Shown: in pieces, positions 9,510 through 31,457 of the stretch
Position numbering within the stretch: position 1 is the stretch's first letter
Layout: each line of letters opens with the position of its first letter
Virus record (IMG/VR): IMGVR_UViG_3300029904_000001
Location: 1 to 64,000 of that record
Length of the DNA: 64,000 nucleotides
Reading direction: 5' to 3' (one strand)
From: a virus
Lineage: Duplodnaviria > Heunggongvirae > Uroviricota > Caudoviricetes
The notes under the pieces: generated by a model
What the model was told of the DNA's origin: nothing
Databases searched by the model: none
Seen by the model: only the letters and a program-made list of their open reading frames with translations
Program-made: the position numbers and the translations under genes

Positions 9510-9812
9510 ATGCATATGAAAAAGTTTGAGTTTTCCGTATTTGACGGTAATGTAACCGTTTGTTATCGGTATGAAATTAACGCCGATAGTATTGTAGAAA
9601 AGTTCTATACGAAACATGCAGCGAATATGCCCGATCTCTATCTAGCCATAGATTGCAAGGATCATTATGTAGACATGAAAATGCCTTTCAACATTGATGC
9701 TATTAACTTCATCGCAAATCTAGTTGCAGAGGTTGAAGAGTATAAGAAAGAATACGATAAACTATATCGCATTCTGTTTAACATCGCGAAAGATGTAAAC
9801 GGAGGTAAATAA
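9510..9812 (+). CDS. hypothetical protein (cassette gene 1)
   Basis: 100-aa ORF in a higher-GC cassette; own upstream motif and terminator; no TGA. Confidence 0.45.
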   Translation: MHMKKFEFSVFDGNVTVCYRYEINADSIVEKFYTKHAANMPDLYLAIDCKDHYVDMKMPFNIDAINFIANLVAEVEEYKKEYDKLYRILFNIAKDVNGGK

Positions 9813-9830
9813 CCTCTGTTTATTTTCTTT
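9801..9830 (+). terminator. rho-independent terminator
   Basis: GGAGGT/ACCTCT hairpin overlapping the stop codon, followed by TGTTTATTTTCTTTT. Confidence 0.5.
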
Positions 9831-9878
9831 TAAATAGACTAATACTATTAGAAGTACGTAATTTAAAAACATATCGAT

Positions 9879-10139
9879 ATGCAAACTTCAGAAGTATTAA
9901 TCACGTACACATGTCTTTATGTAAAGCATGTGCGACAACATGGCTATCAAGGCTCTCTGTACTCTTTTGTCAAGAAATTTGGCGAGAATTCACACATTTG
10001 CGTTCTTGCCAATAAGGTTACACAAGAGTTGGTTAAACGGCACTATATTCAGCGAATGTCTCGTACCACTTATCGCTGGAACAACAACGGAAAAGTACTA
10101 CTTATCCATGATATTAAAACTATCATACAATCTATCTAA
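9879..10139 (+). CDS. hypothetical protein (cassette gene 2)
   Basis: 86-aa ORF, basic. Confidence 0.35.
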   Translation: MQTSEVLITYTCLYVKHVRQHGYQGSLYSFVKKFGENSHICVLANKVTQELVKRHYIQRMSRTTYRWNNNGKVLLIHDIKTIIQSI

Positions 10140-10149
10140 CATCAAACCT

Positions 10150-10178
10150 GGCAGTGTATAGGTTAACTGCCTTTTTTA
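10150..10178 (+). terminator. rho-independent terminator
   Basis: GGCAG..CTGCC hairpin followed by TTTTTT. Confidence 0.55.
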
Positions 10179-10281
10179 TATGAAAGAAGAAGATATCAAG
10201 TGGCGTGACCCAATCGACCCAAGGTATGAAACTCCTGATGGAAAGTAGAGAGAAATCTCTACTTTTCTTTTTTATATATAA

Positions 10282-10290
10282 ACTAAGACA
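10282..10290 (+). promoter_or_regulatory. conserved upstream motif ACTAAGACA (copy 2) preceding gene 10322
   Basis: AACTAAGACATATAGAAGTCAGTAACAAACATTTAACAAATATG mirrors the 9463 copy. Confidence 0.35.
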
Positions 10291-28387: not shown

Positions 28388-28526
28388 AAGATTATTTTGT
28401 AAACACGAATATGTTGAAGTAGGAGTTGCTGATTATCACGAGTATGATAGCTCCAAAACCTCTCGTACTTTTGTAAAGTCGTTTCGAATTCGACAATGTA
28501 GCAAATATAAAAAATTTAAATAAATT

Positions 28527-28958
28527 ATGGGAAAAATCAATTTTACTAAAGAACATCAGATCAAGCTGTATAACGCAGCTATGTTAGCATTGTTTAACAA
28601 CACTTCGTTTCAGACTACTATGGGAGGAACGTGTGGTATTTCTGAGCTTCTTCATCAGATTACTATAAATTCTCTTATCCAGATGAAACAGAATCTAGAT
28701 AAGAAGATTTCAGCTAAAGAGTCAGCAGATGAATGGTCAATGACTGATGAAGAGCAGAAGAAGCTAGATGAACTGAAATCAAAGTCTGAGCTTATCAATC
28801 TTGTAATAGGTTGGAAGAAGTATATTGCTTATCAAAATGAGCTTGCTAATAAAAAGGCAGAGCTCGATAAGATGATTAACGATCTTGAGGAGTCCCAGAA
28901 GACACCTGAAGAAAAGATTAATGAACTTAAAGCTCAAAGAGCAGCTCTCGATGAATAA
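28527..28958 (+). CDS. coiled-coil protein
   Basis: 143 aa, Lys/Glu heptads. Confidence 0.4.
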   Translation: MGKINFTKEHQIKLYNAAMLALFNNTSFQTTMGGTCGISELLHQITINSLIQMKQNLDKKISAKESADEWSMTDEEQKKLDELKSKSELINLVIGWKKYIAYQNELANKKAELDKMINDLEESQKTPEEKINELKAQRAALDE

Positions 28959-29092
28959 GTCTAAAACATCCCGTACTAGCAGAAACGCATTTCATTGCTG
29001 GTGCGGGTATTATAATAAGAAATATTCTCATACTCAACCTACTGAAAAACAAATTGTTTGGGAAATAAGCAAGTTATGTAAAAAACTGGATA

Positions 29093-29305
29093 ATGAATAA
29101 TCCCATTGTCAATAATCGTATAGTAAGCGATTATACGTTTGCATTAAGACTATTATCCTTTATAGAAAATGTAGAAGTCAGTGATTTGCCAGGTGAAGAA
29201 GAAAAAGAATATCTAATAAGTATAGCTAATAATCTCATTCGATGGCAAAAAATGACAGCTTATACAAAAACAGAAATTGAATATTTAAAAAGAAATAAAG
29301 TATAG
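29093..29305 (+). CDS. hypothetical protein
   Basis: 70 aa. Confidence 0.35.
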   Translation: MNNPIVNNRIVSDYTFALRLLSFIENVEVSDLPGEEEKEYLISIANNLIRWQKMTAYTKTEIEYLKRNKV

Positions 29306-29307
29306 TT

Positions 29308-31128
29308 ATGCAAGTAGTAGAATTTAATCAGAAAAATGAGAATCCGTTTTATGGACTTAAAGCGTGTTTAACGATTTATCAGCGTAATCAGTTTTTAATA
29401 GTACAGGATTTTGAAAACGCTTTTCAGGAAGTAAGAAACGATCCCGAGAAACTTAAGATGTTTTATTCGTTGTGTTTCTCAATCGGAGATATAACGAATA
29501 GACAACACAACATCTTTCACGGTAAGAAGAAAGATTCTGGTGGAATGTCTCAAAGAGAATCGTTTTACAACTTTGTTATTTGGCTTTGGGAAAATCAAAG
29601 AGAACAGTTTATAGAGTTTCTTTATAAAGGTCTCTTTAACGAATATAATTGCTTTGATACTCTGCTTCGAAATAGAGTTCGATCGAATAAGCAAGGTGCG
29701 ATTATATCTAAATTCACAATGTTGACGGATGCTAATTATCGAAAGGTTCTTGCTGAATATTTCTATAAGGTTATTAACGGAAACAACCCATTTAATAAAC
29801 AGCTGATCGCTAAGTTTCTTACACTTCCAAGATTGGGTAAACGTTCAAAACATCAAAAGATGTTAACTGAAACATTTACTTTAATGAAAGCTAAAGCAGA
29901 TTTCTTAAAGGAACTTAGCGATTTAATGGGTTGGGAATATGTTTACAAAGGTAACTTCGCCAACTTTGTCGGATTTCGTAAATGGAGACGCGATTATAAT
30001 GGAGAGAACGAATCGGTATTGTTTTCAACTGGAAAGATAAACGATTTTGATCGAGATGAATTTATTACCTGGTTAGATAAACAACCAGCTGGTGCAAGAT
30101 TTAGAGTTAGAAATCGAGTAATGTTTCCTGAATCTGATGGTTCTTTCAAATGGCCTAAGCTTAAGACCTGGTTTGAAGAATGGGAACAGTATAAAGAATC
30201 TAAGCAACAGGAGCAGCGTGTTCTTGAGGAAAAAGTTAGACAAGGTACAGCAACTTCTGAAGATGTTGAGAAACTAAAGAAAGTTCAAAAAGAAGCTAAA
30301 GTTACTGTCGGAGCAACTACATTTAAAGATATATGGAACGGTATACTTAATAATAATGTGGATAAACTCAAGTTTGAAACATTTACTAATAAAGTAAATC
30401 TTCCATATAATGCACTTGTTATTGTAGATGATTCTGGCAGTATGTCTGGTGCTCCTTTCAATTTTGCTACTTTCTTGGCATCCATTTGTCTCATTAAGAA
30501 TCCAGATGATGAAGGTAGAAATCTTATCGGTATGTTTAATAATACAGCTCGTTTGTATCAGTTTATCGATAAGAAAGCTACTAATGTACCGAATTCACTT
30601 TGGAGAAGAGCAAATACTATCAGTATAGTTCCAGAAGCATTTGTAGACCCTCATCGAAGCGTGTACGAGAATTATAAACGTATTGATAATTTCATGCGAG
30701 CTGTATATCAGAGTGGTGGAACTAATATCTCGTCGATTCCCGAGGGTTTCAAGGAGATGGCAGATCAAAATCCAGAGATAATGGATGCTCTAAAGAATTA
30801 TCCTGTGTGGTGTATTGCAAGCGATTGCGAATGGAACAATTTATATAGTCCTGAGGCTTCGATGAATGATTTCATGCGTAAGTGTGAAGACTATTTTGGC
30901 TATAGACCATTTATCATTGCGATAGATGTTAGTTATAGTCATTATTCACAAGTCAACGTAGAGCAATTTAGTGGAATTGACAATTTCCTATATGTTCCCG
31001 GTAATCCTGAGATAATCGAGCAGATCTTAATTAACTTTAAGGATATGGATCGATTTGATGTTTATACTCCTCTTCAGAGTGTATATAGATCTAATCGTTA
31101 TGAAATTGTTAGAGCTAATGTAATCTAA
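29308..31128 (+). CDS. large protein with C-terminal von Willebrand factor A domain (MIDAS DxSGS...GGT); Ro60/TROVE-like candidate
   Basis: ..LVIVDDSGSMSGAPF.. (MIDAS DxSxS) then ..QSGGTNISSIP.. (GGT/N element) then ..IIAIDVSY..; ~360-aa alpha-rich N-terminal region; followed by tRNA-like RNA elements. Confidence 0.45.
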   Translation: MQVVEFNQKNENPFYGLKACLTIYQRNQFLIVQDFENAFQEVRNDPEKLKMFYSLCFSIGDITNRQHNIFHGKKKDSGGMSQRESFYNFVIWLWENQREQFIEFLYKGLFNEYNCFDTLLRNRVRSNKQGAIISKFTMLTDANYRKVLAEYFYKVINGNNPFNKQLIAKFLTLPRLGKRSKHQKMLTETFTLMKAKADFLKELSDLMGWEYVYKGNFANFVGFRKWRRDYNGENESVLFSTGKINDFDRDEFITWLDKQPAGARFRVRNRVMFPESDGSFKWPKLKTWFEEWEQYKESKQQEQRVLEEKVRQGTATSEDVEKLKKVQKEAKVTVGATTFKDIWNGILNNNVDKLKFETFTNKVNLPYNALVIVDDSGSMSGAPFNFATFLASICLIKNPDDEGRNLIGMFNNTARLYQFIDKKATNVPNSLWRRANTISIVPEAFVDPHRSVYENYKRIDNFMRAVYQSGGTNISSIPEGFKEMADQNPEIMDALKNYPVWCIASDCEWNNLYSPEASMNDFMRKCEDYFGYRPFIIAIDVSYSHYSQVNVEQFSGIDNFLYVPGNPEIIEQILINFKDMDRFDVYTPLQSVYRSNRYEIVRANVI

Positions 31129-31457
31129 TGAGAGACGAAGCATATATAAAGAGAATGGAGGACTGGTATGAAAAAGGACCAGTTCCATTCTCTTTTGATG
31201 AAGGAGAATTCATTGAAGTTTTTGATGCAAATCAGATATTTAATGATACTGATTTAACTGGTCAACCTTTTCCAGAATTTATAAAAGAAGCAGCAAAACA
31301 TTTTGGAGAAGATGTAGAAGTAGAAACTAATACTGGTACTTTAGTTGGTATTGCATATAGTTATAGAGATTGGTACTATATTGTAGATTATACTGAAGAT
31401 TGGTTATATGTAACTTGTGCATCCAAAATAAAATTTCTGGAAAATTTGGATAATTAA
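31128..31457 (+). CDS. hypothetical acidic protein
   Basis: 109 aa. Confidence 0.4.
   Translation: MRDEAYIKRMEDWYEKGPVPFSFDEGEFIEVFDANQIFNDTDLTGQPFPEFIKEAAKHFGEDVEVETNTGTLVGIAYSYRDWYYIVDYTEDWLYVTCASKIKFLENLDN

Follow-up and report, generated by a model that had tools for sequence, protein, structure and literature searches.

What lets a phage that reads TGA as tryptophan keep this codon out of many of its genes, and what decodes it in the others? The question is raised by a 64,000-nt stretch of a Caudoviricetes genome, positions 1 to 64,000 of the IMG/VR virus record IMGVR_UViG_3300029904_000001, which we refer to as the window. A run of mostly small genes in the window (16581-31457, the block) writes tryptophan almost entirely as TGG, and the tRNA array that adjoins it directly downstream on the same strand contains a predicted opal-suppressor tRNA whose gene is interrupted by a group-I-like intron. 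We consider it probable that this is a crAss-like phage that carries its own suppressor, uses TGA as Trp in a subset of its genes, and infects a host with the standard code.

TGA is read as tryptophan

The window corresponds to positions 110166-174165 of ENA contig ERZ27239272:k119_89399 (174,393 bp). We took the gene calls from the source assemblies, which makes them independent of our own caller, and added one paralogue, for a total of 95 genes. Two sibling assemblies of 176,907 and 175,719 bp have the same genes and other break points, one of them 31 nt upstream of the window start and the other near ~20 kb of the window. Because these sibling contigs of 174-177 kb break differently, the phage genome is probably about 175 kb and circular or permuted. 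The genome has a GC content of 31%, and 38 kb of the window had no megablast match among the INPHARED phages.

Translation with code 4 gives an open reading frame (ORF) content of 27,751 aa, compared to 18,617 aa with code 11. Long ORFs cover 0.94 of the window when TGA is read through and 0.55 under the standard code, with 0.70 for the TAG control. Reading through TGA restores full-length PolA (670 aa, 6 TGA), an SF2 helicase (409 aa, 5 TGA) and a minus-strand 586-aa M15-peptidase protein (10 TGA), and also the DnaB-like helicase, primase, RNase H, and the LAGLIDADG, GIY-YIG and HNH endonucleases. In RNase H, two TGAs fall at positions where E. coli RNase HI has a conserved Trp. When we compared the window to a relative, IMGVR_UViG_3300029904_000003, 25 of 36 TGA positions paired with Trp (13 TGA/TGA and 12 TGA/TGG), and the remainder paired mostly with Phe or Tyr. 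Because of the RNase H alignment and the TGA/TGG swaps with the relative, we conclude from these alignments that TGA is Trp and not Gly.

We see no sign of a read-through risk once suppression is on. None of the 95 gene calls in the window, and none of the 32 in the block, ends in TGA, which is weak evidence because code-4 calls can end only in TAA or TAG. In-frame TGAs near gene ends numbered 3 against ~1.5 expected, and one of the three is a conserved Trp in PolA. We considered TGA as a stop inside the block and ruled it out from the tight packing of the genes, their TAA and TAG stops, and the lack of any excess of TGA near gene ends.

Public annotation of this phage varies with contig size: a 25-kb sibling contig (L016) was called in code 11 and the 174-kb contig in code 4. 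In L016 the TGA-bearing metallophosphoesterase gene of the block (14763-15272 in that contig) is split into ORFs of 94 and 62 aa. Taken alone, the codon pattern mainly helps annotation, as such contigs need code-4 calling.

TGA is depleted in a block of genes

The first-pass annotation of this DNA had described a block between 16.5 and 31.5 kb that is depleted of TGA while using TGG. This holds up: the block has 4 in-frame TGA and 88 TGG in the 32 genes of the source calls, and the window outside the block has 83 TGA and 100 TGG (Fisher p = 9.8e-14). Two of the counts in that annotation needed correction. It had put about 45 small ORFs in the block, where the source calls have 32 and our own caller gives 35-38. 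It had also listed two TGA-bearing genes, 21233-21406 (one TGA) and 27719-28387 (two TGA), to which we add a third, 21408-21626, with one TGA as its third-last codon. There is a fourth only if the 27524 gene is made to begin at a GTG at 27497. At 21052-21805 the block has four small paralogous genes in tandem, with the pattern W[IV]A[RV]DK... EV[KT]W[EQ]DE; one of them has TGA at a position that is TGG in a paralogue, and in another a TGA comes three codons ahead of the TAG stop.

The depletion concerns in-frame TGA specifically, as the block and the rest of the window are alike in the A-ending fraction of the other two-fold codons (0.68-0.90 in the block, 0.72-0.87 elsewhere), in GC content at third codon positions (GC3, 0.21 versus 0.20) and in the frequency of off-frame TGA.

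The first pass had set this pattern against a uniform TGA fraction across genes, and a single binomial was indeed rejected (chi-square 177, with a permutation maximum of 115). Its description of the pattern as strongly bimodal was right about the heterogeneity, which exceeds binomial, and too strong about the shape. The best fits were a U-shaped beta-binomial (a = 0.29, b = 0.81) or a two-point mixture (p = 0.06 and 0.72), but the per-gene fractions form a zero class and a broad class from 0.2 to 1.0 without two sharp modes, and TGA-free genes are also found elsewhere. The clustering along gene order that it proposed is there: a contiguous-interval scan selected 14158-32379, with 4 TGA and 89 TGG in 36 genes (log-likelihood ratio 29, P = 0.006 against shuffled gene order). 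A cumulative GC-skew minimum at ~15 kb and a strong hairpin at 16533-16564 precede the TGA-free module. A GC-richer cassette at 9.5-11.5 kb, which had been cited as a further TGA-free unit, does lack TGA but carries no weight, since it has only 3 Trp codons and its lack of TGA has a probability of ~0.16 by chance.

The heavy TGA loads that had been noted in the replication, late and homing-endonuclease genes were confirmed (Table 1), with 10, 4 and 10 TGAs in the minus-strand genes. In total 30 of the 95 genes (32%) carry TGA and 68% are TGA-free. TGA accounts for 0.66 of the Trp codons in the TGA-using genes and for 0.04 in the block, where the neutral expectation is ~0.75. Outside the block there are 36 genes that together have 0 TGA and 61 TGG. 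TGA-free genes past 36 kb (TGA/TGG) include GroEL (0/2), an IMPDH-like gene (0/5), a Metallophos gene (0/7), ferritin (0/5), an RlaP-like gene (0/8) and an HNH gene at 56817 (0/4). The same mosaic continues in the next 10 kb beyond the window, with ribonucleotide reductase (RNR) at 0/7, a ligase at 5/2 and an endonuclease at 5/0.

One explanation is that the host natively uses code 4, with TGA as Trp and no release factor 2 (RF2), and that the phage mirrors its host. TGA as Trp and a GC content of 31% would fit this, as would the lack of TGA-ending calls, though code-4 calls could not have shown one. However, a native code-4 genome is expected to have TGA near the mutational level in essentially all genes, and here 68% of the genes, including the 15-kb block, avoid it against the neutral level of ~0.75. 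Recoded phages of standard-code hosts have the recoded codon in 26-71% of their genes, while code-25 phages of code-25 hosts have it in 90% (10.1101/2021.08.26.457843), so the 32% in the window is within the range for standard-code hosts and far below the figure for recoded hosts. The phage also carries its own UCA suppressor, and its replication genes are crAss-like, of the Bacteroidota phage type. We therefore think a native code-4 host very improbable. The first-pass preference for phage-controlled recoding over such a host stands, and TGA avoidance that is kept in the relative (44 of 44 positions, see below) agrees with it.

A second explanation is that the avoidance concerns yield and not timing. 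Each UGA would lose product to RF2, genes that need a high or exact output or are expressed when suppressor is low would be purged of TGA, and the block would be where these genes cluster. This would account for TGA-free genes all over the window and beyond it (GroEL, ferritin, dUTPase, the RlaP-like gene, and RNR in the next 10 kb) and for a zero class next to a broad continuum. It does not account as well for the contiguous clustering, which is significant beyond the gene-level heterogeneity (P = 0.006). Also against it, recoding in published recoded phages is strongest in structural genes with high expression (10.1101/2021.08.26.457843), and the virion-like minus-strand genes here are 92% TGA. 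We judge this explanation to be unlikely.

TGA avoidance is conserved in a relative

The relative used above (loci L099 and L021) has a GroEL that is 81% identical to that of the window, and the aligned segments have ~70-77% nucleotide identity. In the genes that are TGA-free in the window, the relative likewise has TGG at each of the 44 aligned Trp positions. In the TGA-using genes, the aligned Trp positions divide into 11 TGG/TGG, 13 TGA/TGA and 12 mixed. The relative shows the same gene classes as TGA-free or TGA-rich. Because TGG was kept at 44 of 44 positions while a third of the positions differ in the TGA-using genes, we conclude from this comparison that a defined gene set is under purifying selection against TGA, and that drift or recent import does not explain the pattern.

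This comparison also bears on an explanation by ancestry without any selection on TGA, in which the TGA-free genes came recently from standard-code phages and the TGA-rich homing endonucleases circulate among recoded phages. Homing endonucleases are mobile and are almost pure TGA users here (4/0, 7/0 and 5/0), and the GC-rich tail-fibre region at 1-3 kb looks foreign and is TGA-poor. The block, on the other hand, has the same GC3 and A-ending bias as the rest. At this level of divergence drift should have made TGAs at some of the 44 positions, when 12 of 36 were swapped in the other genes. The fact that none of the 32 block calls ends in TGA argues in the same direction, although weakly, as code-4 calls cannot. 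We consider such a mosaic improbable.

Along its whole length, the PolA of the window is 54-58% identical to that of crAss-like phages, some of them cultured Bacteroides phages, and all 146 matches of the primase are crAss-like or other Bacteroidota phages. The window and the next 10 kb (74 kb in all) have at least six endonuclease genes and one intron. Zeta crAss-like phages have genomes of 145-192 kb, many introns and inteins, and TGA or TAG recoding (Yutin et al. 2021, PMC7886860; phage Lera, PMC12386605). Based on these affinities the phage is probably crAss-like (Crassvirales) and Zeta-like, as it fits the Zeta group in its genome size, many homing endonucleases and TGA recoding. We infer that the host is a standard-code member of the Bacteroidota.

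Where the window has PolA and an M42-like peptidase (49750-52660), the relative has a 630-aa protein (L021, 34362-36254). We read its exonuclease and DxxSLYP motifs (YDVEVFPN, DATSLYPT and TNTDG) by eye as the family B polymerase type. This suggests a PolA/PolB swap between close relatives, as reported for crAss-like phages.

A predicted suppressor tRNA with a split anticodon

Neither ARAGORN nor Rfam detected a UCA tRNA in the window or within the 10 kb that follow it. A tRNA-Trp(tca) that ARAGORN called at low stringency at 7070-7154 (-) is inside a coding sequence, and we discarded it as noise. ARAGORN did call an intronless tRNA(tca) of 93 nt in the relative (L021), and 26 bases of the window (34527-34552) are 96% identical to its 5' half. 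When the two exons listed in Table 1 are joined, with a predicted spliced junction of GGUCUU/CAAAACCGU (GGUCUU/CAAAACC), they form a 92-nt RNA. Its minimum-energy fold is a 5-arm cloverleaf (-35 kcal/mol) with the anticodon loop CUUCAAA (UCA). By its sequence and predicted fold, 34520-34838 (+) is a tRNA-Trp-derived UCA suppressor that is split between anticodon bases 34 and 35. Standard tRNA finders miss it because the intron splits the anticodon.

We searched IMG/VR with a pattern and found the same 5' half in 49 contigs, mostly of 100-178 kb. These comprise 8 intronless alleles, 35 complete alleles with an intron, 2 other tRNAs and 4 that are cut off, and all 35 complete intron-bearing alleles have the insert at exactly one common site. 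After in-silico splicing, ARAGORN called all 18 distinct IMG/VR sequences as tRNA(tca). The loci with this tRNA are TGA-recoded, with a median ratio of code-4 to code-11 long-ORF cover of 1.46 versus 1.17 for the TAG control.

For covariation we used 18 distinct sequences, the window allele and 17 from IMG/VR; because the search pattern dictated the D and anticodon arms, these two are uninformative. Pairing in the set reaches 98.7%, and the acceptor, T and extra-arm helices show compensatory changes. Positions 1 and 72 form AU in 14 of the sequences and GU in the other 4, and G73 is invariant. A normal tRNA-Trp(CCA), found in the tRNA arrays of two metagenome-assembled genome (MAG) contigs, has an identical 32-nt D and anticodon domain except for C34, and it has G73 too. 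Because of this shared domain and G73, we regard the suppressor as a derivative of tRNA-Trp.

The short class I variable loop is not found in the suppressor family, which has an extra arm there; one other UCA tRNA (L081) is without the extra arm. In the window the arm is at 34794-34814 (columns 49-65 of alignment A1, GGCAC-GUCCAAA-GUGCC), and all 5 pairs covary. It consists of a 4-5 bp stem and the loop (Y)UCCAAA(A), and occurs in the window allele as well as in each of the 43 complete IMG/VR alleles. The search pattern required TCCAAA, and no extra-arm allele was lost because of this. The loop is identical to the CCA anticodon loop found in ordinary tRNA-Trp, and the suppressor resembles a tRNA-Trp with two tandem anticodon arms, UCA and then CCA. 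Its conservation raises the question of how a UCA tRNA keeps its tryptophan identity, and the extra arm might act in recognition by tryptophanyl-tRNA synthetase (TrpRS).

Related IMG/VR phages have a tmRNA gene beside the suppressor tRNA (L093 714-1153; Rfam, 77 bits).

The insert is a group-I-like intron

The insert of the window has no ORF and is shorter than the 35 complete IMG/VR inserts, which have 341-707 nt. In the window and in all 35 of these, a U precedes the insert and its terminal base is G. The P1 helix pairs CUU/UAG (the slash marks the splice site) with UUGGAG and has a U-G wobble at the splice site. Read from the sequences, P1 covaries between allele groups (A+2-U versus G+2-C). 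The helices follow the order P2-P3-P4-P5-P6-P7-P3'-P8-P7'-P9, with a P3/P7 pseudoknot. The core has 56 pairs and is 98% paired with 11 compensatory pairs, one of them in P7; we assembled this structure manually from these very sequences, in which P3 and P4 do not vary. RNAalifold had paired the GGAG guide with CUCC. We dropped this in favor of P1 with its internal guide sequence and P7, since P7 (UA to CG) and the P1 extension covary and the order is canonical.

The longer alleles contain either a PD-(D/E)XK ORF (PF11645, 55 bits; best PDB match 2OST) or an HNH-like ORF. The structure 2OST is that of I-Ssp6803I, which belongs to the intron in cyanobacterial tRNA-fMet. The cyanobacterial tRNA-Leu(UAA) intron occupies the same site as the insert, between bases 34 and 35. 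The PD-(D/E)XK ORF begins at about nt 16 of the intron (L053, L054, L073) with MSDW, which includes an in-frame TGA. In-frame TGA is also a feature of the intron endonuclease ORFs as a group (L053, L054, L073; L056), so they would be translatable only with a working suppressor already present; some copies are truncated (L054, L061).

Because of the U and G boundaries, the site, P1, the core order with its covariation, and the endonuclease ORFs in the longer alleles, we describe the insert as a group-I-like intron, and we expect that it self-splices. A second intron family (L047, L048, L051) has canonical GUAGAGACUAAAUG...GAUAUAGUCC core motifs. Rfam RF00028 matched a separate canonical group I intron in the related phage L048 (3660-3925) with 84 bits.

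A model for the code switch

In the reading we favor, about two-thirds of the genes, among them the contiguous module of ~35 small genes at 16.5-31.5 kb, would be kept TGA-free by selection and could be translated while RF2 still terminates at UGA. The 227-nt intron would have to be removed first, with the suppressor tRNA working only after splicing. As the mature suppressor built up, the TGA-containing genes would be made full length. These would be the genes for DNA polymerase, helicases, primase, ligase, RNase H and homing endonucleases, and the minus-strand virion or lysis-like genes. In the TGA-using genes, TGG would have drifted toward an AT-biased equilibrium, which would give TGA at ~0.66 of the Trp codons. 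Because DNA polymerase, helicases and primase carry TGA, the switch must precede replication and not merely the late genes. The model needs a window suppressor allele that is charged with Trp and active, as we presume it to be. The compensatory changes in this allele keep all five stems and the intron helices, which suggests that it is still functional.

Several points weigh against this reading. The window allele is the most divergent of the family, with GGCAGAA in the T loop versus TTCGANT, and A18 in the D loop. It has neither the canonical T loop (TTCRANY) nor G18 G19, when all 18 distinct IMG/VR sequences are canonical. ARAGORN rejects it even after in-silico splicing, and the allele could be impaired. 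RF00028 had no match to the intron at E <= 1 in the window or at E <= 10 in five loci. The ~100 kb of genome beyond our view may have room for another suppressor, RF1 or TrpRS. Three genes of the block hold TGA, TGA-free genes are scattered in the replication and nucleotide-metabolism region, and the split between TGA and TGG runs by gene and not strictly by module. That the block is early in infection is suggested by its position and content. The host is placed only by its phage's likeness to other phages: a search of GTDB genomes with the GC-rich tail-fibre fragment as the query found no relatives, and the tRNA pattern search of bacterial genomes returned two small MAG contigs only, without a host signal.

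A more specific form of the model, which is possible but which we put forward tentatively, is that the code switch is gated at the RNA level. The suppressor would form only after group I splicing, and the onset of TGA decoding would be tied to GTP, Mg2+ and folding. The conserved CCA-loop extra arm may allow the host TrpRS, or another factor, to go on accepting the UCA tRNA, and replication, homing-endonuclease and late genes would follow. If this were true, the endonuclease of the intron would be made only once the suppressor works, and intron-split suppressors would account for many recoded phage genomes in which no suppressor has been detected.

Other features of the window

Table 1. Positions of the features discussed in the text, in window coordinates.
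Feature	Position	Strand	Description
TGA-depleted block	16581..31457	+	~32-38 mostly small genes
Maximal contiguous TGA-depleted interval	14158..32379	+	Scan statistic
Metallophosphoesterase gene	27719..28387	+	TGA at codons 21 and 148; needs read-through
tRNA array	31482..36547	+	His, Gln, Glu, Leu(UAG), Pro, Met, Asn, Arg(UCU), Gly and the predicted split suppressor; ARAGORN, Rfam
Predicted suppressor, 5' exon	34520..34552	+	33 nt; acceptor, D arm, anticodon stem through U34; ends ...GGTCTT
Group-I-like intron	34553..34779	+	227 nt, no ORF; between anticodon bases 34 and 35; ends ...GTAAAG
Predicted suppressor, 3' exon	34780..34838	+	59 nt; starts CAAAACCGT; C35 A36, extra arm, T arm, acceptor strand, discriminator G
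Free-standing HNH endonuclease gene	34942..35529	+	3 TGA, 1 TGG; PHROG, Pfam HNH; just downstream of suppressor
Second TGA-poor stretch	36872..44055	+	Isochorismatase-like, IMPDH-like, GroEL, metallophosphoesterase; 2 TGA in 15 genes
TGA-rich mobile and nuclease genes	44123..47479	+	TGA/TGG: LAGLIDADG 4/0, RNase H 4-5/1, GIY-YIG 7/0
Replication module, gene-by-gene mosaic	48899..59960	+	TGA/TGG: PolA 6/6, helicase 5/2, DnaB-like 3/1, primase 3/2
Minus-strand genes, highest TGA use	5932..9213	-	24 TGA, 2 TGG (92% TGA)
GC-richer cassette	9510..11456	+	Three ORFs; 0 TGA, 3 TGG

The block codes for a Band_7 lipoprotein and a glucosaminidase-domain protein, for W-rich membrane proteins and for the paralogous WIARDK family, with the domain matches taken from Pfam. 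A 606-aa protein of the block has no family match, and we read its DDSGSMSG stretch by eye as a vWA-like metal ion-dependent adhesion site (MIDAS) motif. In the replication module, the genes without TGA are a peptidase, a Sak4-like gene, the HNH gene at 56817 and others.

The minus-strand genes include the 586-aa protein with an M15/VanY-like peptidase domain, which has weak VanY/M15 Pfam matches and a PHROG tail-spike match, and these genes are probably virion or lysis related. They are the only genes of that kind seen in the window, since the structural module, with the signature genes for TerL, MCP, portal and virion RNAP, is located beyond it. We found no family matches for the GC-richer cassette, PHROG included; two of its ORFs, 10322-10828 and 10974-11456, look like diverged paralogues by eye. 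A 176-aa protein at 12794-13324 (-), with 2 TGA and 0 TGG, matches Pfam RepL (35 bits, above the cut-off). RepL is a Firmicute plasmid replication protein and is surprising in a crAss-like phage.

Positions 1-3000 of the window have 45-48% GC versus ~30% elsewhere, are TGA-poor, and encode a tail-fibre-like protein whose C-terminal part lies inside the window while the rest extends past its start. One sibling assembly breaks at this 1-3 kb region, and other samples hold different fibre genes of 871-1043 aa (L007, L009, L010). This is probably an imported, strain-variable receptor-binding region.

Within the tRNA array, tRNA-Arg (34434-34506) was found by Rfam only. Between tRNA-His and tRNA-Gln there are tRNA-like fragments (32426-32580) in the order of a T-arm/acceptor-like 3' half (GGTTCAAGTCC), a D-arm-like 5' half (TAGCTCAGCCGGTTAGAGCAC) and another T-arm (TTGGGTTCGAGTCCCAA). 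ARAGORN and Rfam made no call on these fragments at normal thresholds, and they could be decayed tRNAs or further split tRNAs. A YqeY/GatB-like domain protein near the ligase, ~10 kb past the window end (L003 20285-20704; weak Pfam match), may have a role in tRNA metabolism. Sigma-70 promoter scans of the window gave the same result as shuffled sequence, and a Bacteroidota phage is expected to lack a sigma-70 promoter signal. Counting the TAnnTTTG motif added no information.

Comparison with known systems

Stop-codon recoding in phages was reportedly described by Ivanova in 2014. Partial recoding is known from gut phages of the Agate, Jade, Sapphire and crAss-like clades (Borges et al. 2021, 10.1101/2021.08.26.457843), and in the Agate and crAss examples the replication genes are often still in the standard code (10.1101/2021.08.26.457843). 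Earlier work has already described and interpreted this codon pattern of partial recoding (Yutin 2021; Borges 2021). Like the published TGA-recoded gut phages, this phage has a large low-GC genome, TGA as Trp in a minority of genes, gene sets that are compatible with the standard code, a phage suppressor tRNA, TGA-biased homing-endonuclease genes, and no call that ends in TGA. It is unlike them in that PolA, helicases, primase and ligase are recoded too, and in that its suppressor is intron-split and has an extra arm.

The phage also resembles the Zeta crAss-like phages such as Lera (PMC12386605), which are alike in the ~175 kb genome, the crAss-like PolA and primase, and the many LAGLIDADG, GIY-YIG and HNH genes. 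They are also alike in the tRNA block beside the replication genes, TGA as Trp in 18-32% of ORFs, and the PolA/PolB swap. In Lera, however, tRNA-SUP-TCA is found by standard tools, and the suppressor here is invisible to such tools. Native code-4 organisms and phages of the Mollicutes type share TGA as Trp and an AT-rich genome, but they use TGA in nearly all genes, whereas here two-thirds of the genes exclude TGA and the phage brings its own decoder.

The intron is most like the group I introns of bacterial tRNA genes (cyanobacterial tRNA-Leu(UAA) and tRNA-fMet, Azoarcus tRNA-Ile, PMC3984707; Patescibacteria, PMC13011429). These also insert in the anticodon loop, have an exon-terminal U and an intron-terminal G, are 200-350 nt in length, and cause the host tRNA to be missed by standard tools, and some members have a PD-(D/E)XK endonuclease of the I-Ssp6803I family. 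The differences are that the intron here is in a phage tRNA gene, that this tRNA is a predicted stop-codon suppressor, and that RF00028 does not match it. According to a 2014 review (PMC3984707), every phage intron then known interrupted a protein-coding gene, even though phages have many tRNA genes, and we found no later report of a group-I-type intron in a phage tRNA gene in the searchable literature. Our literature search, which was incomplete in coverage, likewise turned up no phage suppressor tRNA that is split by an intron, although this does not prove that the finding is new. With its intron and its extra arm, the suppressor family appears to represent a variant of the recoding mechanism that had not been described. 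About 65% of TGA-recoded genomes have no detectable suppressor (PMC7886860; 10.1101/2021.08.26.457843), and a suppressor that is split by an intron is a concrete reason why suppressors go undetected in most TGA-recoded phage genomes.

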